A stretch of DNA of 64,000 nucleotides from a virus (taxonomy: Duplodnaviria > Caudoviricetes): positions 1 to 64,000 of the IMG/VR virus record IMGVR_UViG_3300012665_000817. The stretch is one strand, 5' to 3'. The notes under the pieces were generated by a model, which was given only the letters and a program-made list of their open reading frames with translations, had not been told where the DNA came from and did no database searches. The translations under genes were made by a program, and so were the position numbers. The first letter of the stretch is position 1. Each line of letters begins with the position of its first letter. Below are positions 465-18,500 of this stretch, one piece after another.

Positions 465-2162
465 ATGGGTATATTCACCAACGACGATTCCACACCAGTC
501 ACTCCCGCTCCTAAAAAATCTGCTCCTTCAGCAATCTCAACAATCTTCACAAACCAAGCTCAGTCTGTTAGCTATTCAACACCTCGTGCACTTACTGCAG
601 CGGCTGCTCAATTAAAAATTAATGACAAAGGTGAATACGAGCAGTTTAGAACTCGTCGTTCAGCAGGGTCTAGCGCATGGCAAGCAGAAGCTTGGGAATA
701 CTACGACGCAATCGGTGAAGTGAAGTATGCATTTAATTTAGTTGCATCAGTTGTTTCAAGAATTAGAATTTATGCAGCAGTCATTGATGATCCTGCAGAG
801 GCTCCAGTATCTGTTCGCAACTCAGATAAGATTGATGATCGTTTAGCTCAAGCAGCAGAGCGTGCACTTGATCGTTTAAATTCCGCATACGGAGGACAGG
901 CAGGGTTACTTAAAGATGCAGCACTTAACTTATCGGTTACTGGGGAATGCTACCTCGTTCAAATGCCAGCTAGAGCTGGAGCTGGTTTACCCGAGTCTTG
1001 GGATATTCGTTCTGTTGATGAAGTAACAACAGATCCAAAGGGTGGATTTAATGTTATTGGTCGTCGTGAACAAGCTGGTTCTGGACAAAATAATAACGGT
1101 TTAACTACAAAACTTTCAAAGAATGCATTTGTAGGACGCATCTGGCGTTCACACCCACGTTTCTCTGATGAAGCAGATTCATCTTTGCGTGGTCTTCTTG
1201 ATCTTTGTGCCGAACTCCTTCTACTGAATAGGACATTCCGTGCTACTGCTCGTTCTCGCCTCAATGCTGGTGCTCTTTATCTTCCTGATGGTCTTTCGGT
1301 TGCGGCGCAAGCGGATCCAGACTACCCCTACGATTCTGAGGATGGTATCGGTCCAAACTTTACTGCTGAAGAAGCAGAAGACGAGTTCGAAGAGCAGCTA
1401 ATGGATGCGATGACAACTCCGATTCGTGACGAAGAGTCCGCATCAGCAGTTGTTCCGCTAATCATTCGTGGTCCTGCAGAACTTGGCGACAAGATTAAGC
1501 AGTTTAAGTTTGAGCGTTCATTTGATCCAATGCTTGCAGAGCGCAGTGACCGTGTTCTAGAGCGCATCTTGCAGGGACTTGATGTTCCAAAGGATGTTGT
1601 TACAGGTCTTGCAAATGTTAAGTACTCAAACGCACTTCAGATTGATGAAACTCTTTACAAGTCACACATCGAACCAATGATGTTGCTTATTGCAGATGCA
1701 CTTACTGTTGTTTATCTTCGTCCATACCTTATCGCAAGTGGATTTACAGATACAGATGTAAACCGCATTGTTGTTTGGTACGACCCATCAGCAATTGCAA
1801 CTCGCAATGACCGTGCAGCAGATGCTGATTCAGGATTTGATCGTGGTGCAGTTTCTTACGACACATGGCGTCGTGCTCATGGCTTCTCAGATCAAGATGC
1901 ACCAACTCCAACAGAGATGGCAATCCGTATGCTCTCAGAGCGTGGAGCCCTCACACCAGAACTTACAGAAGCAATGCTCGGAGCAGTTGCACCAGATGTT
2001 ATGAATGCAATTCGCAGCGCACAGCAAGCAGCTTCCGTTGCCCCGCTACCTCCAGAGGTTGAGCAAGCACTTCAGCAAGCATCAGCAGGTGCAGAGGCAG
2101 CAGGAAACGTTGCTGAATCCCCAGATGCAGAGACAGCACCTGAGGGAACAGAAAATGTCTGA
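465..2162 (+). CDS. portal protein (actinophage type)
   Basis: 565 aa, first in the head operon, SD GAGGAG upstream. WQxEAWEYYD.IGEVKYA and LNLSVTGECYL motifs resemble actinophage portals. Confidence 0.8.
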   Translation: MGIFTNDDSTPVTPAPKKSAPSAISTIFTNQAQSVSYSTPRALTAAAAQLKINDKGEYEQFRTRRSAGSSAWQAEAWEYYDAIGEVKYAFNLVASVVSRIRIYAAVIDDPAEAPVSVRNSDKIDDRLAQAAERALDRLNSAYGGQAGLLKDAALNLSVTGECYLVQMPARAGAGLPESWDIRSVDEVTTDPKGGFNVIGRREQAGSGQNNNGLTTKLSKNAFVGRIWRSHPRFSDEADSSLRGLLDLCAELLLLNRTFRATARSRLNAGALYLPDGLSVAAQADPDYPYDSEDGIGPNFTAEEAEDEFEEQLMDAMTTPIRDEESASAVVPLIIRGPAELGDKIKQFKFERSFDPMLAERSDRVLERILQGLDVPKDVVTGLANVKYSNALQIDETLYKSHIEPMMLLIADALTVVYLRPYLIASGFTDTDVNRIVVWYDPSAIATRNDRAADADSGFDRGAVSYDTWRRAHGFSDQDAPTPTEMAIRMLSERGALTPELTEAMLGAVAPDVMNAIRSAQQAASVAPLPPEVEQALQQASAGAEAAGNVAESPDAETAPEGTENV

Positions 2163-3132
2163 CGCAAAAGCTCCTAAGAAAGATCAAATTAAAGGTTCTA
2201 GCAAAAATAAAAAGGGATCTGCATCAGGATCTCGTAAAGTAGTTTTTTCTAAAGCAGTAGAGAAGTCTCTGCAGGAAAAAGTAGCGACACATAATGAAAA
2301 GGCTAGAGATGGCCGTCGTGCAACTTTAGGAATGCTTAAAGCAGTTTATCGTCGTGGCGCAGGTGCTTACAGCACTTCACATCGTCCCGGCATGACTCGC
2401 AACCAGTGGGCTATGGCTCGTGTTAATGCATTTTTAAAGATGCTCAAGTCTGGTAAGCCAGCGAACTCAGCTTACAAGTCAGACAACGACTTGCTCCCAG
2501 CAAAGCATCCTCGCTCAACAAAGAAGAACAACTCAATCACTGCTTCGGCTGGACTAGTTCCAGAAGAATCAGACCTAGCTAATGCTCTCATTGAGATCGC
2601 TGAGAAGTATGGAAAGTTTAATGAAGATGCAACAGGAATTTGGGCAGGATATACCCCAGCCGCAGAAAACAAGTACAAGGGAATCGGAGTCAAGTGTTCT
2701 TCATGTGTTCTATACATGGGTAATGGCTCGTGCAGAATCATCGAAACCGAAGTCGAGGACGAGGGGAAGTGTCGTTTCGCGGTTATTCCAGATGGGGTCG
2801 TTGATGTCGGAATTCTCGAAGGCGAAAAACTCGGAAACGAAATCCAATCAGTAGAAGAGCTTGCACAGATTTCAGAAGAGTATCGTTTTGAACAAGAACT
2901 TACTGTAGAACTACAAGATGAAGAAGATTACGACTCTCCAGAGCACGCCATCCTCTCTCTAGCTGAGTTCTCAGGGTTTGGCTATGAGGCAGAGCATGCA
3001 GTTCGTGCAGCTTGGCTTCGTGGAGTTCGTAACAATGAAAATCCATTTAAAAGAGCAGCTAATTTTGCATCACTAGGTTACGAAAGCATGGATTCAGATC
3101 TATTGCCTAAAAAGGGAGAAGATAATGTCTAA
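2155..3132 (+). CDS. head-associated protein: basic helical N-domain (VYRRGAGAY...WAMARVNAF, DUF5824-like), HiPIP-like 4-Cys domain, acidic C-domain
   Basis: Likely start ATG 2155, overlapping the portal stop (ATGTCTGA). Motifs read directly from the translation. Confidence 0.65.
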   Translation: MSDAKAPKKDQIKGSSKNKKGSASGSRKVVFSKAVEKSLQEKVATHNEKARDGRRATLGMLKAVYRRGAGAYSTSHRPGMTRNQWAMARVNAFLKMLKSGKPANSAYKSDNDLLPAKHPRSTKKNNSITASAGLVPEESDLANALIEIAEKYGKFNEDATGIWAGYTPAAENKYKGIGVKCSSCVLYMGNGSCRIIETEVEDEGKCRFAVIPDGVVDVGILEGEKLGNEIQSVEELAQISEEYRFEQELTVELQDEEDYDSPEHAILSLAEFSGFGYEAEHAVRAAWLRGVRNNENPFKRAANFASLGYESMDSDLLPKKGEDNV

Positions 3133-6100
3133 GAAGAATCAAAGACAGCTTCACATCCTCTCTCAGAGCGAGACTATCTTTAGTACTCGCCAACAGGCAC
3201 GCATTATTCGCAGTGAAGCACTACAGATGATCGAGGCAGCTAATGAATTTACAACTAATACCCGTAGAGTTAATCGTCGCTCAGCTTTTCGTGTTGTTTC
3301 TCGCTCTCTACACTCTTCTGAAGGTCTCCCATTTTCAGTTCGTAAGCACCAAGCGCTCACAGAACTCTCAAACTACATCTCACTTGCAAAATACAACAAG
3401 GTAGTTGGCTTAACAGCATTTAACACAGACCTTCTACCTCTTACACACCCTCGTTCTACTCGTGAACACTCGATGACTGCATCTGCAATCATTCGTACAC
3501 ACGTTCAGTGGGTCACAGATGATCCACGCATCACCGACGAGAACGCTAAGGCACTTATTGCATCTGCGATGCTTGCTCCAGCTAATTCTCCAGAGAAACT
3601 TTATGCAATTACACGCCTCGAGAACCTTCCACAGGGTCATGTTCCATTAGAGGCAATGACTGCAGCATATGGTGGAGGAAACTCTGCTGCTGCAAAGCGT
3701 GCTCGTGTTGCTCTCCAGCTCCGTGATCGCCTCGGCCGTTGGGTTGAGATGTTTGGTGGACTTGGTATCAAGGTAAAGCGTCGTGATGGAAGCACAGCAA
3801 GCCTTTCAGGTCGTGCAGTTGGTCAGAACATCTTTAGTCCACAACTTGCAGACGTTGAACTTGGCGATGGTCGCATTGTTGCAATGCCAATTCGTCAATC
3901 AAGAGGTGGAAACTTCTTAGCTAGCGATGAAGCAAAGAAAGATGGCTTCACTCGTGCTGGTTCAACAGCAGATGATATGGATGATCCAATCATTGATGAA
4001 GCAGACCTTACATTTATGGAAAGCCCAAGCTCATTCGATAAGGATGAGAAGGGAAGCAAGCAGGGAACAACTAAGTACACAGATCAGGCTTATGATGTAG
4101 TTAAGTTTGACAGTAACAAGCGAGCTTTGGAAGATATTGTCGAAACAAACAAGATCAGAGCTGAAAAAGATTTAGATGATGCCGCTGTTGATAAGCAAGG
4201 CGAGACAGATGCAGATACAGGTAAGCAGTTCTGGGATCCAGAGAAGCCAATCTACGCAGTTTCACGTCGTGGTGGCACTCCATTTGCTTACACACAGAGT
4301 TGGAACGATGCACAGCAGAGAATTCAAGCAGACCAAAGATTCCTCGATGAAGAAGAGGGTCGTACACCTCTTGCACGAATCACACAGGATGACAACACTC
4401 CTGAAGATGAGACTCCACTTGTAGATCAGCAAGATAAGTTTAAGAAGGAAGAGATTGCACGTCTTCCAGAGCCAGAAGCTGACGCAGAGGCTCCACAAGG
4501 TTTTGAATACAAGGTTCCAGAAGATACTTACGAAGTAACTAACCCAACTGCACCATATCGCTCAGTATCTGAGTATGACGACCCTGCATCTCTTGCAAAC
4601 ATGTTCCAAGGTGATGAACTTGTTGAAGGTCTCGATGATGCACTTGATACTGGTCTTGGTCGTTTAACATTCCCAGATTCAGTTGGACCTGACGGAGAAC
4701 CTACTGGTGGAGAGCAAGAAGTTCCAGCAGAGGCAATCCTCAAGGCAATTGATGAAAAGGGCGGAGACGCAGAACTCGCACTTGCTCAAGCATACGATAA
4801 GCGTCTTGGAACAAACGAGAACGAAGATGCACTTGCTGCAAAGCGTGAAGCAGATAAAGAAGGCAAAGTTGGCGAGCCAAAGAAGCTCGGCGAAGTATTT
4901 GATGAAGTAACAAAGGCTCCAGAGCCAGAACCAGAAGCACCTGCAGAAGAGGAAACTCCTGATGCAGATATCCCAGAGATTACTGAAGATGCAGAGCCAT
5001 CTACATACCCTGCTCTTATTGATGGACTTACTGAAGAAGAGCAAGCAGAGTTTGATAAGAACAAGGATTACACTCCATATCTTTCAGAGGATGCTCCAGT
5101 TGAATGGCCAGAAGGTTCTACACCTCCACAAAATAGAATTCTTAGTGAAGAAGAGCGTGCTCAAGCTCTAGAGATTGCTAACTCAGATATTCCTGATGAA
5201 GATCTTGTCGAGTCATACAACGGAGCGATTAAAAACAAGTATGACGAAGATGGTTATGCACCATTTGGAGATCTAGACGAAAATAACGAAGTTCAAACTA
5301 TCCAAGTACCAAGTGAAGTACTTCGTGATGCAATGAAGCTTCGTAACTTCGACATGGATGAGACTAATCAGCAAGTTGTAGATGGAACTTGGGATGAAGT
5401 AGATCCAGAAGATGAAGTTGCTCTTGAAGAAGAGCCTGTAGCAGAAATTCCTACACCAAGAATTCCAGATGAAGGCAAGGGAACTAAGGCTGGAAAAGAT
5501 CCTCTCAAGGAAGGCTGGGGATCAGAAGATTGGATTGATGAAACATCTAAGGATCCTCGTTTCCACGAGATGCTTAAGAAGAATAAAGACTTTGCAAGAC
5601 TTACTGGTTTCTTTAATGATCCAACATTTGATAGCCCTCTTCTTTCTGATTATCAGGATAAAGAGATGGAAGGCTTTGAGGCTGGAAGTGAAGTAGAGGC
5701 AATTGACACTGGAGAATATGGTTTTGAACCAGGACCTTCAGCTCGTGTTCAGTATGCACTTGATATTCTGCAAGATCCTACGCAGTCAGTTCGTGGTGGT
5801 TTCAAAGACTTCAGAACTGGCGAGCGCTCTGCAGAGAATGAAAGAAACATTCTTAAGGCAGCAGACGAGCAACTCGATCTTGCTAAGCAAGATTTGTCAG
5901 AGTCAGATGTTATTGAAAACAAAGCAATCGACTCTGTTCGTGCAACTCTTGCAAAAGAAATTGCAAAGCTTGATAAGCAGATCGAGAAAGATAAGAAGAA
6001 GGCAGAAGAGGATGCAATTGCACCTCAAGTTTCTTATCGTCTAAGAGGAGATCGCCTAGAGCTTCGCTCTGGTAAGAAGGCTCCATTTAGAATTCAAGAA

Positions 6101-9100
6101 GTTAAAGACTTCCTAGATGACAACGGTTTTGATTGGAACCCAGACGCTAAGGCTGAAACAAAGTCTGGCATGGATGAAAAGCAAGCTAAGGCTTTCCTCA
6201 AGGAACTTAAAGATAGATTTGGAATCGACCTACTCGAAAGAGAAGGACAAGCTCGACTTGATCTAGATGCAGTCGATGAAACTCCAGAACCAGAAGCAGA
6301 AGACTTAACACCAGAGACTACAGATGTTGCTGGCCCAGAGGTTTCAAAAGACAAGACAGATATTGCTGACGCACTTCCAGATACTTTGCCAGAAGGTTGG
6401 TCAAAGGATCCAGAGTCTGCAACTCTTGCTAAGAATGAAGATGGAACAATTCTTGATCTTGTTGATGAACCAGGTGCTAAGTATTGGTTCCTTCTTGGTG
6501 GCTCTCTAGAGCAGTCAGTTGAGTTTAATAATCCACAAGAAGCATTTGATTATCACGAAAAGAACATGAAGGGCGAGTCAGCCCCACTAAGTGACGGACC
6601 TTTCCGTCCCAATGGAATTCTTCCAGGACTTCCTGGATACAAGCGTGATCCAGAAGTACCTATAGATCTTAGAGGCGACTATATTAAAGTTGGCGATAGG
6701 GTTCTACACAGAGGCAAGTATAAAAAAGTTAAAGAAATTACTGGCAAAGGTCTAGATAGAACTGTTTGGTTTGAAGAAGAGTTCCCTGGCGAAAACAACT
6801 GGCTAACTGTTGGAATTAAGCCTCAGTCTGTTAAGAGTCCTCTAGAGAATGATGGACCTGAAACACTTGACGTTGCTGGCGAGAAAGTTATTAAAGTTCC
6901 TAATGGACTTGGAGACTGGGAGCTTGATAACTTTGTCTTGAGAAAAGTATTTGGTAAGTGGACTGTCCGTGATAAAAACGGTGTAAAGAAGTTCGGCAAA
7001 TATGACACGATGGAAGATGCAGTAAAGGCTATTCAAGAATCTAGAAAAGAAAAGCCAGCGGCAACTCCAACTCCTGCAGAAATAGTTCCTAACTTCAAGC
7101 CTAAGCCAAAAGCTACCTCCGAAGAAGATGTGTCCTCAGAGGAGAATGTAACAACACAGGTTGTTACTGATATGGAAGAAGAGGAAGCTCCCGAGGCGAC
7201 TCCTACAACTCCAGAAGAGACAACACCAACAGAGTCTGAAATCCCAGAACCTACAACACAGCGTAAGGTTCTCATCTTCAAACTTGTGTTTGCTAACTTT
7301 GGTCCTAGAATGTATCAAACTGCTGGAAAGGGATCTAAGGATCTTGCTCCAGAAGTACAGGCTATGTTTGACGAGCTTGCAAAACTAGATACAGAAACTC
7401 TCAAGGCGTTAGGTCGTAATGTTAACGAAACTTGGGGATGGAAATACATCAAGAATGTCGATCCTAAGAGAGGATCTAAGGCTGATACTCCAGACATTGG
7501 TGATGGAGAAGTAGAGATTGTTTCTGAGCCAGAACAACCTGCAAGCACAATTGATGAATCTAACATTGAAGACGCAGTAATCGTAACAACCCCACGCATT
7601 GCAACAGCTAAGACAACAGATCTTAAGCCAGGCGATGTTATGACTAAGGACTTCTTTACAGTTACAAAGGTAGAACCAGGATTTGAAAAGAAGCGTAATG
7701 GAGAAATGGTTCCAGCTTCTCGTGTAAGTGGCTATTACCCTGGCGGAGTAGAGCAGTCAAGCAAACTTTGGGCAGACGATGTTCTCTTCGATGTTTATCG
7801 TGATGTAACTCCTCCTGCAAAGGGAGATCTACCTGAACTCAATCAGCCAAAGATGGGTGATTACGGAAAGCTTACAAAGGTCAATGGCGATTGGGAACTA
7901 AAAGACCCAGCTGAGCAAAAGCAATTTGAACAAGATATGGAAAAGTATCAGGAGCAACTAGCTACTCAGAAAGCACTATGGGATGCTCCAGAAGTAGAAC
8001 CTACTGTAAAAGAATTTACACCTGAAAACACTCTTCACGTTGTTAATGCACTTGGTAAGGATCTTAAGCCAAACGACATTGCATTCCGTCGTGATGGAGA
8101 TAATCTCAGCGAGTTCTTTGTTATTGAAGAAGTTCTTCCAGGTACAGTTATGGTTGAGCGTGCAGATGGAAAGCCAGCTGAAGAAAAGGTTCAGATCCGT
8201 GGATACTACCCAGGACATGAATCACAAGTTAAGTCTTGGAAGGTCGGAACATCTGTTGAAGTTCTCCGTGGAGAAAAGGCAGAGAACATTCCTGCAAAGG
8301 GCGATAAGCCAGCAATCGAAAGTATTGAGCCAGGAACTCTTAAGGGTCAGGCTTACAAAGACAAGAATGCAGAAATTTCAGCAGCAAGAAAAGAAGCAGG
8401 TAGTGCATACACACCTAACCTAACAGCTACAGATATCCCAGCGGTGCTGGTACAAAAGCCAAGCAACTGGGACCGTGGAAATCGTCCAGCATTCTTTGGT
8501 AAAGCTGCAGAGCTTGCAAACCTCAAGGATGGAGCTGCAATCTCAGAAGCTCTTAAGGGCAAGAGAGTTGTTTACTTTGACTTTGAAACAGTAGGAACTG
8601 GAAAGTTTGATAACGATAATCCTGATGCACCTATTCAGGTTGCAGCATCTGTCTGGGAAGGTGGAGAGAAGGTTGGAGAGATCAACCTATTCATCAACCC
8701 AGGTGAACCTCTTGGAGACTTCTACTACAAGACAGATGCAGATGGAAATAAAGTTCTTGACCCAGAGAAGCTACTTATCTCAGACGGACAAATCGTTGAC
8801 GACGAGTTCCTAGCAAGCCAACCATCTATCGAAGAACAGCTTCGTGCATTTGCAGAGTTCGCTGGACAAGATGCAATCTTTGTTGCACACAACGCTGAGT
8901 TTGATACAAATACATTTGAGAAGTGGGCTAAGAAGTTTGGTATCGATTACAACATGGATGGTGTTATCGATACTCTTGAACTAGCAAAGAGCATGACTCC
9001 TAAGGGCAATAAGCTCGGTCAAGTTGCTAAGCGCTACGGCATTGAGAAGACAGATGAAGAGTGGCATGACGCTAGAACTGACTCAGAGGTTCTTCCAGCG

Positions 9101-12100
9101 ATTCTAGAAGGCTTACTTGGAGACATAAAGCCTGACAATAGAGAATTTGATAGTGCAACACGCCTTGCAGAGTTTAACGCCAAGCGTTCTGCATATAACG
9201 AAAAGATGGAAGCATTTAAGAAGCAAGAAGCAGAGCTTGCTATGGCTGAAGCAGTCAAACGTGGAATGTCTGGAGAGCAAGTATCTGTCGATGAGATGCT
9301 CGGTAAGCCTACGACAACATCTGGCTTTGGATCTGAAGGAAGCACAGATACTGCTGAAGAGTACGCCTACGAGTCAATCTTTGGTGGAAAGATTAACAAC
9401 TCTTGGATCGAAGATGATGAAAACACATTTGTTGTTGACGAAGGCGGAGCAACTGTTGGTGATATTAAGGTTGGTGACTTTGTCCCAGCTGAAGGTGGCG
9501 GATACCACGAAGTTGTAGAGCTTCAACAAGACCCAGAAGATCCAAACGGAACTATCGTTATTCGTAGAATTGTTTCAACTGGTGAGCTATACAGCACACG
9601 AGTTACAGAGAAGAAGTCTCCAGGAATTGGTTGGTCTAATGGAAAGGTTCTTAAGGGAACACTTCGTCGTCGTAATGAACTAGCTGGTAAGACACCTGCA
9701 GAAGTTAAAGATCTAGTATCTAAGCCAGTAGTTGTTGCTCCAGAACCTAAGACAAAGCCAAAGACAGCTACACCTAAGGGTAAGAAGTCTATTACTCCAG
9801 AAGAGACTCAGAGTGTTGTCTCAGATGCAATCGAAACAATTACATCTGGTGCTAAGCCAGACGCTACTGTTGAGGAAGCAGTTAAGGGTCTTCCAGTAGA
9901 TGACACAACTAAAACTGCAGTACTTGCTGTTCGTCCAGATGCATCTATCAATCATCTTTCAGCAGATGGTGTTGCTCTTAAGGTTGGCGATAGAGTTCGT
10001 GGAGTTAAGCACGGCCGCATGGGTGAAGTCAGAGCAATCCTTACAACATACGGTCCTCGTGGATACAAGAACTATGTCAAGGTAAAGTTTGATGACGCTG
10101 CTAAGCGTGAAAACATTTCAGCAGGTTCACTACAGATTATTAATCCAGATGATGGTGGCGGTTTCTTTGTAGATACAACACCTCCAACAGTTGGAGAGCC
10201 AGTAAATCCTAATGAAACTCCTAAATCAACAGAAGAACTAACTTCACTTCTTACTGGAGATGTTGCAGATAACACTCCTACAGTTGAAGTCCCTGAAGAG
10301 CCTGTAGTTATGGATGCTGAAGAGCGAAGCAGAATTTGGAAAGAAAACGAAGAAAAGAGAATGAAGTACGCTCTTGATCTAAACTACCGCCAAGTAAGCC
10401 CTGAAGCATTAGCAGAACTCACAGCGGCAGTTCAAGATATTTCTCAGTACGACAAGGGTCATCAAAGATCTGTTACAGCATTTATGCCAAGTCTTTCTAC
10501 TGGAAAACCTGTAAAGGCAACATATACATTTGTAAAGCCAAGTAAAAAAGAGCTTGAATATCGTGAAGACTTTGAACCAGACGATATTATTGTCAAGATT
10601 GGTCCAAGCAACACTGAAGCAGTTATCAAATCAGATGGAAAAATTTTCTATTTCGATAATCCATCTATTCCAAACTGGTGGTTCAGCGTTAGATCTCCAG
10701 ACCTATACACAGCTATTGAAAAGAAAGATGAAGTCACTCTTCCTCTAGGAGAAAAACCTGACCTTGAAAATATGGGAATGATCTCTCTTAATCAAGAGTT
10801 CCCAATTGAATCTGCAGGTAGCCCAGACGATGAACTAGATCCAGATTTTATTGCAGATAGCCCTGATGCAGAGCCAAAGGGAATCAAGCCAACTAAGCAA
10901 CAGCAAGCAGTTATTGATGCTGTAGTTTCTGGTAAGGATGTAATTGTTCAGGCTCTTGCTGGAACAGGCAAGACCAGCACACTTAAGATGGCTGCAAAGG
11001 CTGTTGCAGAAAAAGATCCAGAAAAAACTATTCTTTACATTGCCTTTAATAAGGCTGTAGCTGCAGAACTCAATGCAGACCCAGATCGTCCTTCAAATAT
11101 GATTGCAAGAACCAACACACAGGTTGCTTGGCACCACTCACCTACATGGATGCAAAAGCGTAGTTTCGATAAGACATCTATTGGATTCCCAACAGAAGTT
11201 GCAGACCATCTTGAGTTCGGACCAGTTAAGGTCACAGAGATTAAGAAGGATGGAACAAAGGTAGAAGCAACTCTCTCAAGTAGAGAAGTAGTTGCAGTTG
11301 TTCGTCAGGCAGTAACAGCATTTGCACAAAGTGCCGATGAAAAGATTATGCCTAAGCACTTCACAGATAATTTTGTAGATATTCCTGAAGTATTCATTGA
11401 CTACGCAAACCGCTGGTGGGACGACATCTCAAGCCCTAAGGGTCGCTTGACAATGAACCAGTCTTTCCCAGAAAAATATGTTCAACTTAATGGCATTGAT
11501 GTAACAATGTCTCCAGATTCAGAAACTACAAATCCAGACAAGGTAATTCCTGCAGCAGACATTATCTTCTTTGACGAAGCACAGGATATTAACGATGTTG
11601 CTGGTGACTGGGTGCGTAAGCAAAATGTACAAAAGGTATTTGTTGGCGATGGAAACCAATCTATCTATGGCTTCCGTGGAGCTAAGGATCAACTAGATAC
11701 TCTTGAAGGAGCAGAGAAGCTTCAAATCACAGAGTCATTCCGTTTCGGTCCAAACATTGCAGCACCTGCTAACCGTTTCCTTGCTGTTGCTGGAAAGCCA
11801 GAGAGAGTCATTGGAGCTGGTAAAGATCAAGGTAAGGTTGTAGAAAGTCTTGACCAGATGCCAGACCCAGATGCAGTTCTTGTTCGCACAAATGGTGGCG
11901 GATTCAAGGCAATGCTTGAGTATCTTGAGCAAGGAAAAACTGTAGGTATTAGTCAATCAACCAAGACAAGACTTGAAGAAGTTATTGATACAACAAGTTG
12001 GCTAATGGGCGGAAAGAAAGGCTCAAAGCCAGCAAAATACAATGCAGAAATTGGAATGTACGACTCTTGGGAAGAGCTTTCTACTGCAGTGCGAGAAGGA

Positions 12101-14551
12101 AAAGCTCGTCCAGTTAAGGCTTTCTACGACTTGGTAACACAAAACGGTATGCAGAGTATTCGTGACATTCTAGATCGTGTTGTTGTAGAGCGTGAAGAAA
12201 CTCCAGAAAGCAAGATTGCTCTTAAGAACTACAAGCCTCTTACTCTAGATAAGGTAGAAGATGGCTCTACTGGAAAGCTAGATAAAGATGTAACTTACAA
12301 GATCGAAGGTGATGATATTGTCCTCACTGGATTCTTTAAGTTTAATAACGAAAAGCTTAAAGAAGCAGGATTTAAGGCAAGAAAGAATCCAGACGGAACT
12401 TGGGCAAATGATCGTCGCCTTACAATTGAAGATGATCTTAAGAAGGTAGATAAGCTCAACCAACTTAAGAAGATCCTTGAGGGTGTCATCGAGCCAGTTA
12501 AGGCAGATGTAGTTATTACCACAGCGCATCAATCAAAGGGTCTGCAATGGGACAAGGTTCGTATATTTGATGACTTCTGGGGTCCAAAGTTTAATAAGGA
12601 GACTGGCGAGATTGATATGCCAGCACCAGAAGAACTTCGTCTTGCATATGTTGCAATTACTCGTGCTCAGAAAGAAGTTTACCTAGGACCTCTTAGCTGG
12701 GTTAATGACTACACATCTGAAGAAGATGAGCAAGCAACTCCATCATCTTTAATATTGCAAGCAACGAACATTGAAACAGATCCAGTACCAGTTACACCAG
12801 AAGAGTTTGGTGATGAAGTACAGGAAACTGCAAAGAAGATTGACCCAGCTACTCAGAAGATTGCAGATGCAATTATTGCAGCCCTTGAAGCAGGAACTGC
12901 TCCTTGGCGCAAGCCGTGGACTGGCGGAGGATTCCTTCCAACTAGCGTTGCAACTGGCAAGATGTATGAAGGAACAAACGTCCTTGTACTCTGGGCAGCT
13001 CAGGAGCGCAATGGTTGGTCAGACAATCGTTGGCTTACATACAAGCAAGCAGAAAAGCTTGGCGGAAACATCAAGCGTGGCGAAAAGGCAACATCAATCA
13101 TCCACTGGACTCCAAAGTTCAAGGATGTTAAGCAGCCAGATGGAACTATCGAAAAGGTATTTGTTTACACACCGCCAAAGATCATTAACGTCTTTAACGT
13201 AGAACAAGCAGAGGGCATTAATCTCCCTCCACTAGTTAAGGGTGAGCCAATCCCAGTGAGCCAAGCAGAGCAGACTCTTCTTGACACATACAAGGATCGT
13301 CCAGAGATTTTCTACAAGTCTCAAGACAGCGCTTACTACTCACCAGTAACAGACACTATTCACTTGCCACTTCGTGAGCAGTTCGGTGCAGAGCAAGACT
13401 TGTTTGAGACTCTAGTTCACGAACTTGCACACAGCACAGGGCACACATCTCGTGTAAACCGCAAGGATCTTACAGACAACTACGGAACTCATAAGGCAAG
13501 CCGTGGTGAAGAAGAACTTATTGCAGAAATCTCTGTAGCACTTGTTGCTGCTCGTCTTGGAGTTGAGATTGACTTCGGTAACGTTGCATCTTATGCAAAG
13601 TCATGGCTTGGAGCTCTTAAGAACGATCCAACAATGATTATCAAGGCAGCCAAGCAAGCACAAAAGGCTGTAGACCATATGCTAGGCAAGCAAGAAGAGC
13701 CAGCAAAGGTTGATGAAGAAGGAAACCCTGAAGAGCCTGTTGGCGAAGGTGTTGGTAGCGAAGGTAAGACTGGCGATGAAATTGCAGAAGATGCAGGGTT
13801 AAAGCCAGAGTCAACTCCTGAACCTAATGTCGGCGAGCAGGGTAAAACTGGAGAAGAGATTGCTCAAGAAGATGACATCAAACCTGCTGGTATAAAAGGT
13901 GGACACGATCTTAGCCCTAGAGAAGCATTTACCAAAGCTGTAAATCGTACCGATGTAGATATTAAAAAAGTATATGGTGCAGAAGAAAAATACCAGCCTC
14001 AACTGCAGAAAGATATGGAACCACCTGCTGCCCCTAGACGTGCAGATTTTCAAGATAGTGACTCTTATATAGCAGCTCATAAAAAATATGTTAAAGACTT
14101 TAATAACTACTACCTTGAAAGATCAACAAATATTCAATCTTCAATAGGAGAAAAACATTTAGACGGGTCTCCAAAAGGTGTTCAAAATTATGTAAAAGAT
14201 ATAATCACCGCCGATTGGTTTGTAGAAGCCTTTGGCGATGGAGGACAGATAGGAAGACCTCCAGTTAGCCTGTTCAGTGGTAAGAGCCATGGTGGTAAAT
14301 ATACTTATGGCTTTAAAAACGGTGCGTTTATGTCATCATTAAAAATTAACAGACTTTTAGCGAAAAGTGAGCCAAATATCCTTCACGAAATTGCTCATTT
14401 TGCTACAACAATTGCCGTGGCAGAGGGGCATGACGCTCATGGTGTAGAGTATAGAATGAATTATATTTTTATCACTGATAAAGTACTTGGTCGTGAAGCT
14501 GCAGAAAGTCTTAAAGAGTCTTACAGAAAGGGAAATCTAAATGTCGGATGA
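3125..14551 (+). CDS. giant polyvalent head-associated protein: DEDDh exonuclease + UvrD-like SF1 helicase + ArdC-N/MPTase + C-terminal zincin
   Basis: 3808-aa uninterrupted ORF between portal and prohead protease. Motifs: DFET/HNAEFD/HDARTD; ALAGTGKT/DEAQD/GDGNQSIYGFRGA/SFRFG/TAHQSKG/YVAITRA; PWRKPW/YEGTN/WLTYKQA/VFNVEQ; HELAH; HEIAH. Confidence 0.9.
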   Translation: MSKKNQRQLHILSQSETIFSTRQQARIIRSEALQMIEAANEFTTNTRRVNRRSAFRVVSRSLHSSEGLPFSVRKHQALTELSNYISLAKYNKVVGLTAFNTDLLPLTHPRSTREHSMTASAIIRTHVQWVTDDPRITDENAKALIASAMLAPANSPEKLYAITRLENLPQGHVPLEAMTAAYGGGNSAAAKRARVALQLRDRLGRWVEMFGGLGIKVKRRDGSTASLSGRAVGQNIFSPQLADVELGDGRIVAMPIRQSRGGNFLASDEAKKDGFTRAGSTADDMDDPIIDEADLTFMESPSSFDKDEKGSKQGTTKYTDQAYDVVKFDSNKRALEDIVETNKIRAEKDLDDAAVDKQGETDADTGKQFWDPEKPIYAVSRRGGTPFAYTQSWNDAQQRIQADQRFLDEEEGRTPLARITQDDNTPEDETPLVDQQDKFKKEEIARLPEPEADAEAPQGFEYKVPEDTYEVTNPTAPYRSVSEYDDPASLANMFQGDELVEGLDDALDTGLGRLTFPDSVGPDGEPTGGEQEVPAEAILKAIDEKGGDAELALAQAYDKRLGTNENEDALAAKREADKEGKVGEPKKLGEVFDEVTKAPEPEPEAPAEEETPDADIPEITEDAEPSTYPALIDGLTEEEQAEFDKNKDYTPYLSEDAPVEWPEGSTPPQNRILSEEERAQALEIANSDIPDEDLVESYNGAIKNKYDEDGYAPFGDLDENNEVQTIQVPSEVLRDAMKLRNFDMDETNQQVVDGTWDEVDPEDEVALEEEPVAEIPTPRIPDEGKGTKAGKDPLKEGWGSEDWIDETSKDPRFHEMLKKNKDFARLTGFFNDPTFDSPLLSDYQDKEMEGFEAGSEVEAIDTGEYGFEPGPSARVQYALDILQDPTQSVRGGFKDFRTGERSAENERNILKAADEQLDLAKQDLSESDVIENKAIDSVRATLAKEIAKLDKQIEKDKKKAEEDAIAPQVSYRLRGDRLELRSGKKAPFRIQEVKDFLDDNGFDWNPDAKAETKSGMDEKQAKAFLKELKDRFGIDLLEREGQARLDLDAVDETPEPEAEDLTPETTDVAGPEVSKDKTDIADALPDTLPEGWSKDPESATLAKNEDGTILDLVDEPGAKYWFLLGGSLEQSVEFNNPQEAFDYHEKNMKGESAPLSDGPFRPNGILPGLPGYKRDPEVPIDLRGDYIKVGDRVLHRGKYKKVKEITGKGLDRTVWFEEEFPGENNWLTVGIKPQSVKSPLENDGPETLDVAGEKVIKVPNGLGDWELDNFVLRKVFGKWTVRDKNGVKKFGKYDTMEDAVKAIQESRKEKPAATPTPAEIVPNFKPKPKATSEEDVSSEENVTTQVVTDMEEEEAPEATPTTPEETTPTESEIPEPTTQRKVLIFKLVFANFGPRMYQTAGKGSKDLAPEVQAMFDELAKLDTETLKALGRNVNETWGWKYIKNVDPKRGSKADTPDIGDGEVEIVSEPEQPASTIDESNIEDAVIVTTPRIATAKTTDLKPGDVMTKDFFTVTKVEPGFEKKRNGEMVPASRVSGYYPGGVEQSSKLWADDVLFDVYRDVTPPAKGDLPELNQPKMGDYGKLTKVNGDWELKDPAEQKQFEQDMEKYQEQLATQKALWDAPEVEPTVKEFTPENTLHVVNALGKDLKPNDIAFRRDGDNLSEFFVIEEVLPGTVMVERADGKPAEEKVQIRGYYPGHESQVKSWKVGTSVEVLRGEKAENIPAKGDKPAIESIEPGTLKGQAYKDKNAEISAARKEAGSAYTPNLTATDIPAVLVQKPSNWDRGNRPAFFGKAAELANLKDGAAISEALKGKRVVYFDFETVGTGKFDNDNPDAPIQVAASVWEGGEKVGEINLFINPGEPLGDFYYKTDADGNKVLDPEKLLISDGQIVDDEFLASQPSIEEQLRAFAEFAGQDAIFVAHNAEFDTNTFEKWAKKFGIDYNMDGVIDTLELAKSMTPKGNKLGQVAKRYGIEKTDEEWHDARTDSEVLPAILEGLLGDIKPDNREFDSATRLAEFNAKRSAYNEKMEAFKKQEAELAMAEAVKRGMSGEQVSVDEMLGKPTTTSGFGSEGSTDTAEEYAYESIFGGKINNSWIEDDENTFVVDEGGATVGDIKVGDFVPAEGGGYHEVVELQQDPEDPNGTIVIRRIVSTGELYSTRVTEKKSPGIGWSNGKVLKGTLRRRNELAGKTPAEVKDLVSKPVVVAPEPKTKPKTATPKGKKSITPEETQSVVSDAIETITSGAKPDATVEEAVKGLPVDDTTKTAVLAVRPDASINHLSADGVALKVGDRVRGVKHGRMGEVRAILTTYGPRGYKNYVKVKFDDAAKRENISAGSLQIINPDDGGGFFVDTTPPTVGEPVNPNETPKSTEELTSLLTGDVADNTPTVEVPEEPVVMDAEERSRIWKENEEKRMKYALDLNYRQVSPEALAELTAAVQDISQYDKGHQRSVTAFMPSLSTGKPVKATYTFVKPSKKELEYREDFEPDDIIVKIGPSNTEAVIKSDGKIFYFDNPSIPNWWFSVRSPDLYTAIEKKDEVTLPLGEKPDLENMGMISLNQEFPIESAGSPDDELDPDFIADSPDAEPKGIKPTKQQQAVIDAVVSGKDVIVQALAGTGKTSTLKMAAKAVAEKDPEKTILYIAFNKAVAAELNADPDRPSNMIARTNTQVAWHHSPTWMQKRSFDKTSIGFPTEVADHLEFGPVKVTEIKKDGTKVEATLSSREVVAVVRQAVTAFAQSADEKIMPKHFTDNFVDIPEVFIDYANRWWDDISSPKGRLTMNQSFPEKYVQLNGIDVTMSPDSETTNPDKVIPAADIIFFDEAQDINDVAGDWVRKQNVQKVFVGDGNQSIYGFRGAKDQLDTLEGAEKLQITESFRFGPNIAAPANRFLAVAGKPERVIGAGKDQGKVVESLDQMPDPDAVLVRTNGGGFKAMLEYLEQGKTVGISQSTKTRLEEVIDTTSWLMGGKKGSKPAKYNAEIGMYDSWEELSTAVREGKARPVKAFYDLVTQNGMQSIRDILDRVVVEREETPESKIALKNYKPLTLDKVEDGSTGKLDKDVTYKIEGDDIVLTGFFKFNNEKLKEAGFKARKNPDGTWANDRRLTIEDDLKKVDKLNQLKKILEGVIEPVKADVVITTAHQSKGLQWDKVRIFDDFWGPKFNKETGEIDMPAPEELRLAYVAITRAQKEVYLGPLSWVNDYTSEEDEQATPSSLILQATNIETDPVPVTPEEFGDEVQETAKKIDPATQKIADAIIAALEAGTAPWRKPWTGGGFLPTSVATGKMYEGTNVLVLWAAQERNGWSDNRWLTYKQAEKLGGNIKRGEKATSIIHWTPKFKDVKQPDGTIEKVFVYTPPKIINVFNVEQAEGINLPPLVKGEPIPVSQAEQTLLDTYKDRPEIFYKSQDSAYYSPVTDTIHLPLREQFGAEQDLFETLVHELAHSTGHTSRVNRKDLTDNYGTHKASRGEEELIAEISVALVAARLGVEIDFGNVASYAKSWLGALKNDPTMIIKAAKQAQKAVDHMLGKQEEPAKVDEEGNPEEPVGEGVGSEGKTGDEIAEDAGLKPESTPEPNVGEQGKTGEEIAQEDDIKPAGIKGGHDLSPREAFTKAVNRTDVDIKKVYGAEEKYQPQLQKDMEPPAAPRRADFQDSDSYIAAHKKYVKDFNNYYLERSTNIQSSIGEKHLDGSPKGVQNYVKDIITADWFVEAFGDGGQIGRPPVSLFSGKSHGGKYTYGFKNGAFMSSLKINRLLAKSEPNILHEIAHFATTIAVAEGHDAHGVEYRMNYIFITDKVLGREAAESLKESYRKGNLNVG
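8560..9130 (+). other. DEDDh (DnaQ-like) 3'-5' exonuclease domain within the giant protein (approximate bounds)
   Basis: ExoI VYFDFETVG, ExoII FVAHNAEFD and ExoIII WHDARTD are all present. Confidence 0.9.
10880..12710 (+). other. UvrD/Rep-like SF1 helicase domain within the giant protein (approximate bounds)
   Basis: Walker A ALAGTGKT, Walker B FFDEAQD, and motifs VGDGNQSIYGFRGA, ESFRFG, LVRTN, TTAHQSKGLQW, AYVAITRA. Confidence 0.92.
12848..13690 (+). other. ArdC-like ssDNA-binding domain plus MPTase zincin within the giant protein (approximate bounds)
   Basis: IIAALEAGTAPWRKPW...YEGTNVLVL...WLTYKQAEKLGGNIKRGEKAT...VFNVEQ, then AYYSP..D.IHLP...HELAHSTGH...EELIAE...ASY.KSW. This is the canonical ArdC architecture. 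Confidence 0.9.
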
Positions 14552-14659: not shown

Positions 14660-14785
14660 ATGACTAAGTCAGATAAGGAAAAGTACAACGAGGCTGTCGT
14701 TGCTGCTTATCGCAAGATTATCGAGCTGGCAGAGGTTGATCCCAATGCTGACTCCTATGAGCCTGAGGATGAGGAAAAGCTATGA
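14660..14785 (+). CDS. small acidic protein (41 aa)
   Basis: MTKSDKEKYNEAVVAAYRKIIELAEVDPNADSYEPEDEEKL*. It starts 2 nt after the previous stop and ends in an ATGA overlap with 14782. Confidence 0.6.
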   Translation: MTKSDKEKYNEAVVAAYRKIIELAEVDPNADSYEPEDEEKL

Positions 14786-15504
14786 AACTTTCTAATGCTA
14801 AGTCCTACCCGCTCGAAGGTATGTCTTTAATCTATGCAAATGGCGAGAATGTTGTTTATCAAGCTGTATTTTCTACAGAAAAGTTTGGTACTTTCACAAG
14901 AGTAGATGGCCAATGGCTTGCCTTGTCTCCAGACGATACTAGCCTCGAGAACCTTTCAATTATGGACATTCTTCCTGCTGACTACAAAGTAGTTACAGAT
15001 ATGTTCGATGCTGCTCAGAAGGCAAATACTTATCTTACATATGACCAAGTTAAAGACTATGAAGTTGCCTACTCTTTTGAAGAAAGTGGCAAGTCTATGA
15101 CTGCAGCAGTCGAGACATCAGAGGGATGTCCTCCTGCTACTTCAGACATCGCTATAAACTTAAAAAATAGAGAAGGTGCTATCAAAACTGCTGGTTATGG
15201 ACCAATGAATCCAGCACTTCCAAATAACAAGTTTTGGCAAGCAAAGGCAGATCGCTGGACTGTTCCAGTTGAAGATGCAAAGAAATCCCTGTGTGGAAAT
15301 TGCGCTGTATTCATTCAAACACCAAAAATGCTTGACTGTATTGCTTCTGGACTTGGAAATGAAGCAGGAAATGACGCTTGGGGCTCAATCGAGGCTGGCG
15401 ATCTAGGGTATTGTGAAGCATTCGACTTTAAATGTGCAGCTTCTAGAACATGCGATGCATGGGTAGCTGGCGGACCAGTAACTGAGGAGTCAGGAAAAAT
15501 ATGA
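14782..15504 (+). CDS. head-module protein with C-terminal Cys-rich HiPIP-like domain
   Basis: CGNCAVF...GYCEAFDFKCAASRTCDAW motif. ATGA-coupled on both sides. Confidence 0.6.
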   Translation: MKLSNAKSYPLEGMSLIYANGENVVYQAVFSTEKFGTFTRVDGQWLALSPDDTSLENLSIMDILPADYKVVTDMFDAAQKANTYLTYDQVKDYEVAYSFEESGKSMTAAVETSEGCPPATSDIAINLKNREGAIKTAGYGPMNPALPNNKFWQAKADRWTVPVEDAKKSLCGNCAVFIQTPKMLDCIASGLGNEAGNDAWGSIEAGDLGYCEAFDFKCAASRTCDAWVAGGPVTEESGKI

Positions 15505-18500
15505 TGGAGTTTATCGGTCGTAACGGAACTAGAGCTCTCTTTGTTTCAGACGATAAAGGCGTTGTTGTAGATGACTCTGTAAACATTGTTACTGCATTAG
15601 ATATCAAAGAGCCTCTCATTGCTTCCTTCGAATGGGACTCAAAGGGTGCTCGTCCTACCGATACAGCAGTAGAGCTTGCAGCCGCTGCTTTAACATCTCT
15701 TGACATCAAAGTATTTTCAAATAACGACCGTATGTACACAATTCCAGACTCTGTTATCGCAGAGGCAAAGCGTGGACTTGCATGGCGCAAGGAAGAAGAT
15801 CGTGGCGGCACTTCAGTAGGTATGAACACTGCTCGCACACTTGCTCGTGGTGGACAAATTGGTATTCGCAAGGTTCGTCATATTGCTAAGTACTTCCCAC
15901 GTCATCAAGTAGATAAAAAGGGAACTGGCTACAAGCCGGGACAAAAGAATTATCCATCTAATGGCCGTATTGCTTGGGCTTTATGGGGTGGAGATGCCGC
16001 AGAGCGTTGGGCATCAGCAATTGTAGAGCGTGAAAATAAAGCAGCAAAGTCAAATGCAATGCTTGCTTATGGCTACGAGTCATACGAGCACGAGATGCCA
16101 AAGGCTGTTGACTATGACTCTTTCATTACTTCAAAGACAATGCCTGAAGATAATGTAATTGAATTTTTTGTTCGCATCCGTATGGATGGATCTGGTATTG
16201 ATCGCCTATATCGCATTGAACCTAATGGTTTGATGTATGTATGGGACGACGGCAACTGGGACGACATGGGTAACCCAGACAACGATCACCACAGCTATGA
16301 CAAGATGTTGGATGATATCGAAGACACTGTGCCTAAGACACACATGCCTGTTGACACAGAAACAGCGCTTCTCATTGCTGCTCTTCTAGATAACGAACCT
16401 CTTATTGCTCATCGGATTGACAAGCTTCAACCAGAAGAACACAAGATGATTGTTGATGCTCGCCCTGAGCTTGATTGGGAGTTGATGAATGAAATCATCA
16501 TGCCTGATGAAGAAGCATCCATGTGGGATTACGATGACTCACTTACTGCGGCAGGAGAAGCTCCATCAGATAACGATGGAAACTACACTCCCGAAGAGCG
16601 CTCAGCAAATGCTGGAGCACAGCTTCGTGATAAGACAGGTAAGTTTGCAAAGATGGGTGGCCGAGTAGTAATCGGTGGTCGTCCAAACTATCAAGGAAAC
16701 ATTCGTTCTATTGATAATGCAACAGGCAATGTCAAGGTAGAGCTTGATAACGGCAACATGATTGATGTTAATGCAAAGCTTACAGAGCCACTAGATACCT
16801 ACACACCAATTCCTCAAGGGTTTGCTGAAACAGAGCTAGATACAAGCGGAATTCTTGGTGAGCCTCGTACTCCTATGGATTCACCAATTCGTATGCCAGG
16901 AACACTACCTCCTCTTAATGCACAAAATTTAAACTCAATGCTTACAAACTATCCACAGTGGGTTGCTGATCAAAGATTATCTCCAGACACTGCAGAGTCA
17001 ACAGCAACATCTGCTACACCAGGAGTTGCAGAAAAGCCTCCAGCAAGAAGTGCAGATCCTCTTGCAAAATATTATCCTCAAGCAATGAAGCAGCCTACAA
17101 AATCTGTCAATGCCTATAACATTCCAACACTGAAGAGATGGTTAGAAGCAGATAAAAACGGACTTAGAACTGCAACTCCTTTTCAAGATCCTGCAGACAC
17201 AAAAAAGTATATTGATGCTAAAGGAGCTCAGAGTCCTTTTCTAGATAAAAAAGGAAGACCTCTTAAGGCATCTGTCGAGTCTCCAGTAAATATGACACCA
17301 GAAACATCAGACGTTCCAATTGTTCATATGGCTGTTGTATCTCCAGATGATCCACAGGCGGTTATGGATTTAGTTGCTCTAGTTCCTTCAACAGATGTAA
17401 GCACTACTCCAACAACATTTACTCGTAAGGATGGTAAGTGGGTTCCAGAACCTCAGATTCTTTCTGACCTTCGTAGTGCAACACCACCTCCAGTAGTAGT
17501 TCTAGATGACACCAATCTTCTTGATGTTTTAGAGCAAGTTGATGGTAAGAAGTCAGTTACTGCAGCAGGTGGTTTAGATCGCAATAAAGGTCAAGCAGAA
17601 AAGCTTCGTCGTTACTGGACCTACGGCAAGGGTGCAGCCAAGATTCGTTGGAAGACTCCCGGAGATTGGACTCGCTGCTACAAGCAGTTGGCTAAGTACA
17701 TGGGACCTCGTGCCAAGGGCTACTGCGCCCTTCGCCACAAGGAGATGAATGGCTACTGGCCAGGAGATCGTAAAAACGATAGAAAGTCTGATTTTTCAGT
17801 CAACACTATGCATTCTTATGACGAGCTTTTGAGCACTTTTGTTATGAGAGCTAAGGCAGCAGATGCCAAGGCTAGAGTCCTAACTGCTGGGGCGTATGAG
17901 ACCAACGAGACTGCAAAATCTCAAGGTGCAGAGTTCTTAATCCCTCTTGTTATTCCAGAAGGTATGGAGTCTGGCGATGGAAGAATTATGAGAAAGGGCG
18001 CTCTCGATATGAGAGAACTTCCTCTTCCACTTCTATGGCAGATTAAAACAGGCGAAGGACATGATGGTTCTGTCGTAGTTGGTCAGATCACTAGTATGGA
18101 AAGAACTGATGAAGGTATTGGAAATGCCAAGGGTCATTTCGATACTGGAGAATATGGTAAGGAAGCCGAGCGTCTAGTGCGTGGAGGTTTCATCAGAGGA
18201 GTGTCAGCTGACCTAGACCAGTTCGAGGCAGATGATGAGCGCAAAGATGATGAAAACGGATCTGACACTAAGGTAGATGCGGGTAAAATTACTATCACAA
18301 AAGCACGAGTCATGGCTGTGACTATCGTGCCTAAACCTGCTTTCCAAGAGTGCACAATTCAGTTAGCTAGCGAAGCTAACGTTGAGGAGGATGAAGTGAA
18401 CATTCCTGACGGAGTTTACGTCGAGGGAGTCAATGCTCTGGAAGCTTCGGCTCTAGTTGCTTGTGGAATGATTGCTGGAGCAATTCCAGTAACACCACCA

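Follow-up and report, generated by a model that had tools for sequence, protein, structure and literature searches.

A 3,808-residue polyvalent protein encoded among the head genes of a tailed phage: a candidate head-loaded and co-injected enzyme chain

The window studied here, 64,000 nucleotides of an uncultured lake phage corresponding to positions 1 to 64,000 of IMG/VR virus record IMGVR_UViG_3300012665_000817 (Duplodnaviria; Caudoviricetes), contains within its head-gene block a single gene (positions 3125-14551, + strand) for a protein of 3,808 amino acids (aa) and 420.8 kDa, with an isoelectric point (pI) of 4.74, to which we refer as the giant. With its unrelated enzyme domains, the hub domains ArdC-N and MPTase, and a virion-gene context, the giant is a phage-type polyvalent protein, the class to which an earlier note made from the nucleotide sequence had assigned it. 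We further propose, as a reading that we regard as rather probable, that the giant is loaded into the phage head, trimmed of its N-terminal leader, and co-injected with the genome as an anti-restriction and DNA-processing enzyme chain. The loading, the trimming, and the ejection, together with all activities in the host, are what we infer from sequence.

Four known modules of the giant were called by Pfam, and all of these calls exceed the curated thresholds. The first is a DEDDh (DnaQ/RNase T-type) 3'-5' exonuclease domain (8555-9130, +), which matches RNase_T (PF00929) at aa 1816-1990 with an E value of 5.7e-16 and 59.9 bits, versus a cut-off of 24. Its motifs Exo I (D-x-E, aa 1817-1824), Exo II (D, aa 1922-1927), and Exo III (H-x4-D, aa 1980-1986) are all present, Exo III being kept in only 60-90% of relatives. 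A UvrD/Rep-type SF1 helicase follows (10880-12802, +; UvrD-helicase/AAA_19 at aa 2591-2854 and UvrD_C at aa 3098-3187), in which motifs I, II, III, V, and VI were located, are intact, and are kept across 21 sequences. Behind it lies a complete ArdC unit (12827-13714, +), consisting of an ArdC-N single-stranded DNA (ssDNA)-binding domain (ArdcN, PF08401, aa 3242-3330, E 2.2e-29) and an MPTase domain (MPTase-PolyVal, PF18818, aa 3398-3511, E 3.4e-29) that holds the HExxH motif (aa 3432-3436) and a downstream acidic EEL stretch, with the motifs kept in 11 homologues. This succession of ArdC-N and an HExxH metalloprotease is the architecture of ArdC itself, and in a sequence search of the PDB this part of the giant matched the ArdC of plasmid R388 (6i89) with an E value of 9e-46 over residues 10-284 of 297. 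PHROG matches concur (DNA helicase, E 5e-74; anti-restriction protein, E 2e-68). The earlier calls of a DEDDh exonuclease, a UvrD-like helicase, and ArdC-N plus MPTase are thus borne out by Pfam, PHROG, and PDB matches as well as by intact motifs. Counting the zincin described next, all four enzymes have intact catalytic residues, which are kept in relatives down to 36% identity.

The chain ends in a SprT/Wss1-like minimal zincin (13895-14548, +), with HExxH at aa 3754-3758 and a downstream H-G. The SprT-like profile PF10263 scores 13.3 bits at this second HExxH (aa 3752-3778), which is below its cut-off of 25.6. However, 11 homologues, some fused and some stand-alone, all keep HExxH and the downstream H-G without variation, and the AlphaFold2 (AF2) model of the domain has a pLDDT of 88. 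The top structural match of this model is SPRTN (6mdx; Z 6.5, root mean square deviation 3.3 over 105 residues), on a par with other zincins, and its structural neighbors are almost all zincins, including Wss1 and minigluzincins; SprT-like proteins are also among its matches in a viral structure library. Along with a profile match to an HtpX homologue (E 0.011), these observations uphold the second zincin that had been called from the motif HEIAH. Stand-alone homologues of 255 aa occur in other phage contigs. In one unrelated phage contig (L045:5848-12439), such a zincin (~40% identity) is encoded between a head-tail adaptor and a polyvalent protein of 1,944 aa that combines several Alt-like ADP-ribosyltransferase domains with a protease-like part. 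Since this stand-alone homologue adjoins an Alt-like polyvalent protein in a head/connector block, the C-terminal zincin appears to be tied to head-associated cargo generally. The same 255-aa protein carries an N-terminal G-R-F-A-x-G element, which is similar to the anchor motif of the giant described below.

The 3,808 codons from 3125 to 14551 are open without interruption, as the earlier note had claimed, and the frame has a good ribosome-binding site: a GGGAG-type Shine-Dalgarno sequence lies upstream of the ATG, and the start overlaps the stop codon of the preceding gene, which makes translational coupling plausible. Given that the source is a metagenome-type contig of 89 kb, the ORF (open reading frame) could in principle be an assembly chimera or a fusion artifact of separate genes, and Logan contigs from four DNA runs cover the gene in pieces shorter than 2.4 kb, none of those listed spanning or bridging all of it. 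No RNA run was listed among the sequencing runs that contain the sequence. We give this explanation practically no weight, because no fewer than 20 IMG/VR contigs, assembled independently and drawn from different samples, share a continuous ORF with the order header-exonuclease-helicase-ArdC, at identities from 96% down to 36%, and because a protein library holds representatives of 3,498-3,613 aa with the same architecture. Comparison of the gene and its domain content among related contigs thus returned the same domain order throughout this set; in total, two IMG/VR scans turned up the header at 26 loci and the C-terminal zincin at 18, from many samples.

The basic N-terminal ~270-300 residues of the giant, which we call the header, contain the only part that is common to all of its relatives in the same slot after the portal gene: a 3,289-aa protein of phage DSL-LC01, gp68 of Microbacterium phage Cece (1,654 aa), and gp77 of Arthrobacter phage Mimi (2,709 aa). 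The header begins with a basic leader (aa 1-121; 3125-3487, +; pI 11.3) that comprises a helical bundle and then a flexible segment, the latter with an L-L-P-x-x-H-P element and a first cleavage-like [ILMV]-T-A-[AS] site at aa 116-121. The leader is followed by an anchor module (aa 122-262; 3488-3910, +; pI 9.9) with a second cleavage-like site (aa 177-182), a basic helix containing R-D-x-x-G-[RK]-[FW] (aa 197-212), and a small beta-barrel. The DSL-LC01 protein has the entire header in common with the giant (31% identity), whereas the Mimi and Cece proteins are without the ~120-aa leader, so that the anchor module is the only header part found in them. No Pfam or PHROG match was obtained for the header, and Pfam searches with 13 header sequences at E values up to 5 gave only noise (for example, Hc1, E 0.15). 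Phage_Mu_F was matched neither by the whole protein nor by those 13 sequences at the same limit; the header was therefore not assigned to the MuF/SPP1 gp7 family, to which it may be analogous in role.

To delimit the family, a profile of the first 300 residues was searched in 1.84 billion representative proteins, with clusters defined at 50% identity. The header was found in at least 269 clusters, invariably at residues ~1-300, and mostly in front of a very long chain: most of the proteins measure 2,000-7,000 aa (median 2,640 aa, maximum 7,004 aa), as do at least in their lower bound of 2,000 aa 110 of the best 150. Among these best 150, an exonuclease was recognized in 58, a helicase in 28, ArdC in 14, and a zincin in 2, in an order that can differ. 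Fifteen header proteins, mostly picked for having none of those four domains, contained GNAT acetyltransferase, PI3/4-kinase-like, and NUDIX domains. The cargo of the family, which varies behind the header, matches the repertoire of polyvalent proteins (PMC5512222). Within the header, the R-D-x-x-G-[RK]-[FW] element is the most widespread feature (135 of 139 header proteins), followed by L-L-P-x-x-H-P (110/139) and the first cleavage-like site (91/139).

Both the cleavage-like site and the R-D-x-x-G-[RK]-[FW] element recur in proteins encoded around the giant. The order of genes is portal (465-2162, +; phrog_776, E 1.9e-111), a 325-aa DUF5824 protein (2155-3132, +), the giant, a cysteine-rich 240-aa protein (14782-15504, +), a protease/scaffold protein of 1,583 aa (15501-20252, +), the major capsid protein (20415-22508, +), and then tail genes. 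The location between portal and prohead protease that had been claimed for the giant is roughly right, with the DUF5824 and 240-aa genes intervening on either side. In seven portal-to-capsid proteins, each of which carries the motif, [ILMV]-T-A-[AS] occurs at 9 sites versus 1.75 expected, compared with 2 sites versus ~4 expected in 30 other ORFs, and the sites hold their positions in relatives. The giant has such sites at aa 117 and 178, in or beside header segments that are flexible in the AF2 model, and otherwise only at aa 2432. L-L-P-x-x-H-P precedes the first of these sites, and the DUF5824 protein has the same element before a cleavage-like site of its own. In each of the four phages compared, R-D-x-x-G-[RK]-[FW] likewise recurs in the protease/scaffold protein and in further portal-proximal proteins, mostly just downstream of a cleavage-like site, and in the Cece and Mimi giants it stands at the extreme N terminus. 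We therefore regard [ILMV]-T-A-[AS] as a candidate prohead-protease site and R-D-x-x-G-[RK]-[FW] as a candidate loading element.

The presumed processing enzyme is the protease/scaffold protein, which consists of an N-terminal phrog_2859 domain, an S78-type prohead protease at aa ~850-960, and a helical scaffold-like C terminus; it contains R-D-x-x-G-K-F at aa 374 and 1422 and cleavage-like sites at aa 348 and 686. In DSL-LC01, its content is divided among three genes. The major capsid protein has a hyper-acidic, Ala/Glu-rich N-terminal extension of ~265 aa (20415-21215, +) that ends in V-T-A-S, followed by the conserved HK97-fold part. As similarity to the capsid proteins of most other phages begins at this V-T-A-S, it is the place where maturation cleavage would be expected. 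The extension may represent a built-in delta or scaffold domain and may also serve as an acidic partner of the basic header. A complex prediction for the capsid protein with header residues 165-262 scored 0.00, a result that weighs neither for nor against binding. At aa ~43 of the portal protein there is an L-T-A-A-A-A element, kept in four ~50% identical relatives (L015, L022, L024, and L025), and the portal may be trimmed at its N terminus. The products of 14782-15504 and 2155-3132 have one cleavage-like site apiece.

The distribution of cleavage-like sites within the giant gives no support to another claim of the earlier note, namely, that cleavage releases the enzymes as separate proteins. 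Conserved sites are confined to the header, and a search for a repeated junction peptide within the giant found none. The site at aa 2432 was dropped as a processing site, being lost in relatives of 57-74% identity. The site at aa 178 was rejected as a universal feature of the family, as it is missing from a clade of 42-57% identity.

A further trait that the giant shares with virion proteins is the absence of cysteine. None of its 3,808 residues is a cysteine, versus ~36 expected at the 0.95% of the replication enzymes, and cysteine is likewise absent from the capsid, tape-measure, and Dit proteins, unlike from the replication enzymes of the phage. The header family follows the same trend, with no cysteine in 68 of 119 members and two at most in 115 of 119. 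Such an absence would be expected of a protein that lives in particles in oxic water and not of a cytoplasmic helicase. The head packaging proposed in the earlier note would thus be in line with the conserved N-terminal header, the two motifs common to head proteins, and the lack of cysteine, and we keep it as a prediction. By contrast, the small proteins on both sides of the giant are rich in cysteine (7 in the 240-aa protein and 4 in the 325-aa DUF5824 protein); the DSL-LC01 counterpart of the former is annotated as a high-potential iron-sulfur protein.

Do the exonuclease and helicase instead belong to DNA metabolism within the infected cell? The phage has a replication module separate from the giant, comprising PolA (which includes a proofreading exonuclease), an SNF2 helicase, a PD-(D/E)XK nuclease, AAA_24, and DUF669, as well as a primase-polymerase/D5 protein encoded beyond the window. 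This agrees with the earlier statement that a polymerase and an SF2 helicase are encoded elsewhere, and it argues that the exonuclease and helicase of the giant are not the replisome. Alternatively, the giant might be made late and never packaged, its place in the operon reflecting timing: it would be either an in-cell DNA-processing accessory for packaging, whose helicase and exonuclease would resolve or trim concatemers, or a late anti-defense factor. The total avoidance of cysteine, as in virion proteins and unlike in replication enzymes, fits poorly with such a role, as do the header motifs common to the protease/scaffold and capsid proteins. Arthrobacter phage records, on the other hand, call the same-slot protein just "DNA helicase," and R388 ArdC, the protease of which is dispensable for anti-restriction, functions when expressed within the recipient (PMC7213743). 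Yet the GNAT, kinase-like, and NUDIX cargo of the relatives would make no sense for DNA packaging, and anti-restriction of the ArdC type would be of use at entry and not late. On balance, we consider a late function inside the cell unlikely.

If the giant is indeed head loaded and co-injected, a plausible course of events can be outlined. The gene would be expressed together with the head genes, and the protein would enter the procapsid by means of its basic header of ~270 aa, the R-D-x-x-G-[RK]-[FW] module of which is the element that is also present in the protease/scaffold protein. There, the S78-type prohead protease would trim the leader at one or more [ILMV]-T-A-[AS] sites. The remaining acidic, cysteine-free chain of ~400 kDa would stay in the DNA-filled head and exit through the portal and tail with the genome. 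Once in the host, the ArdC unit might bind single-stranded or otherwise exposed DNA and blunt type I restriction, while the UvrD-type helicase and the DEDDh exonuclease could deal with DNA ends or with obstacles formed by host nucleoprotein, and the two zincins could free modules or attack host proteins.

Several points weigh against this proposal. A strongly acidic chain of 400 kDa beside packed DNA is unusual, and it is unproven that a siphovirus tail can let ~400 kDa pass. Both motifs are short, and their putative roles are read solely from enrichment and position. The AF2 model of aa 1-300 is of low confidence (pLDDT 59.6), Foldseek returned nothing for it from the PDB, and the ESM Atlas gave no usable match. 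Among 50,697 sequenced phage records, the complete header is present in one, the DSL-LC01 metagenome-assembled genome (MAG), and cultured Microbacterium phages have only the anchor module of the header. Pre-packaging is not required of the ArdC family, given the behavior of R388 ArdC. Finally, we found no virion proteomics in the literature for this actinophage lineage or for phages with the full header.

Much of the giant lies outside the enzymes. Apart from the header, the chain has a pI of 4.2-5 and several 50-aa windows that are rich in Asp, Glu, Pro, Thr, and Ala and poor in hydrophobic residues, in agreement with the acidic linkers described in the earlier note. The largest such stretch (aa 271-1810; 3935-8554, +) consists of unassigned small domains and linkers, and together with aa 2011-2580 it makes up the ~60% of the chain that is acidic, linker-rich, and without a recognizable enzyme. 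This composition raises the question of whether the giant has a chiefly structural role, as an internal core, an "inner body," or an ejection conduit in which the long acidic chain would organize DNA or the head interior and the enzymes would be passengers or partly decayed. The slot is indeed kept while its cargo is swapped or missing, Cece gp68 and the DSL-LC01 giant having no Pfam domains. Decay, however, is difficult to reconcile with catalytic residues that are intact in all four enzymes and kept down to 36% identity, and lengths that range from 1,654 aa to above 7,000 aa within the slot and family are a poor fit to a ruler or core of fixed geometry. We thus judge a mainly structural role to be quite improbable.

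As for the repeated barrels reported earlier, one pair of small barrels in the acidic region (aa 1495-1570 and 1642-1715) is homologous (E 1e-7), whereas the other [LIV]-[KR]-x-[GN]-D segments, of which the giant has five in all, are without demonstrable homology; a self-BLAST of the giant found no long internal repeats and nothing homologous beyond this pair. The same region includes a hypervariable stretch at aa ~1150-1460 (6572-7504, +) that is exchanged or strongly diverged among relatives (L006-L011) that are elsewhere 85-95% identical, and which is, to judge from these alignments, a module-exchange hot spot within the gene. Directly before the C-terminal zincin, an acidic linker segment is imperfectly duplicated in tandem (13751-13873, +), and some alignments with close relatives stop at ~aa 3564 and restart at ~aa 3541.

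How does the giant compare with known systems? Head packaging and co-injection of polyvalent proteins were already predicted in 2017 by Iyer, Burroughs, Anand, de Souza, and Aravind (J Bacteriol; PMC5512222), and the Mimi gp77 protein, annotated "DNA helicase," holds in the same slot a UvrD helicase that is 34% identical over ~670 aa. The earlier remark that no such combination was known from this position was therefore overstated. Like the proteins of the 2017 survey, the giant combines many unrelated domains in one chain, uses ArdC-N and MPTase as hubs, and adjoins virion genes. However, those proteins are anchored by MuF, a portal fusion, or a described LPD domain, whereas the giant has a ~270-300-aa header of its own. 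ArdC-N is usually N-terminal and mostly found on conjugative elements, and UvrD-type helicases were noted only in a few actinomycete plasmid-type giants (PMC5512222); here, ArdC-N lies near the C terminus of a phage protein. New relative to that survey are the header, the combination of a DEDDh exonuclease, a UvrD helicase, and ArdC in a phage, and the second, SprT-like zincin. None of Mimi gp77, Cece gp68, and the DSL-LC01 protein has a recognizable exonuclease, ArdC, or C-terminal zincin, and the DSL-LC01 paper does not discuss the giant gene.

A counterpart of a single module is R388 ArdC (6i89/6sna; PMC7213743), with full-length homology and the same pairing of an ssDNA-binding ArdC-N with an HExxH metalloprotease. 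It is, however, a 297-aa protein made in the recipient, while the ArdC of the giant is one module in 3,808 aa, with a predicted role in anti-restriction. Very large head-carried enzymes that are delivered with the DNA are exemplified by P1 DarB, a helicase plus DNA-modifying enzyme for anti-restriction, and by N4 vRNAP, which has an MPTase-type domain; their packaging is proven (PMC5512222), whereas that of the giant is predicted. The giant has neither a methyltransferase nor an RNA polymerase, its loading determinants are different, and no relationship in sequence was found beyond the helicase and zincin folds. With regard to processing, the precedents differ: P1 DdrB is processed, and N4 vRNAP and the plasmid proteins ArdC and TraC1 are transferred whole (PMC5512222). 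A further parallel, in gene size and place beside the portal, is offered by the Microbacterium cluster EK podoviruses such as Burro, which have a 13-kb gene for more than 4,400 aa with few informative domains; purified Burro virions contain a ~250-kDa product of this gene, which is virion associated and probably processed (PMC7302621).

With respect to the phage as a whole, the capsid protein groups it with Actinomycetia phage DSL-LC01, a MAG from a lake; large siphophages of Microbacterium, Arthrobacter, and Gordonia are more distant. The gene for the large terminase is found outside the window (genome C1:80549-81961, -), on the strand opposite to the head genes and ~79 kb from the portal gene on the linear contig, a distance that would be shorter if the contig ends adjoin in the complete genome. 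Near it are two other giant genes, one collagen-like (67775-75111) and one with PA14 (82674-86378).

It is tempting to speculate that the header, chiefly its R-D-x-x-G-[RK]-[FW] module, is a general cargo-loading tag by which actinobacterial phages fill their HK97-fold capsids, much as encapsulin cargo peptides or the capsid-targeting sequence of T4 do elsewhere. On this view, enzyme chains as long as 7,000 aa would be exchangeable cargo in hundreds of lineages, to be loaded, clipped at a lineage-wide T-A-[AS] code, and injected, although we put this generalization forward only tentatively. Were the giant not packaged, it would be an ordinary, though very large, multidomain phage enzyme. If the header is a loading tag, the giant would be a ready-made machine for anti-restriction and DNA-end processing, and the header would provide a sequence-defined, testable rule for putting large enzymes into the heads of actinobacterial tailed phages, as well as a possible way of getting foreign proteins into phage capsids. 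The polyvalent-protein hypothesis of 2017 would become directly testable in culturable Microbacterium and Arthrobacter relatives. Moreover, the header family would amount to a catalogue of several hundred natural cargo sets, from nucleases, helicases, and ArdC to acetyltransferases, kinase-like, and NUDIX proteins, that phages of abundant lake bacteria would use in the first seconds of infection.

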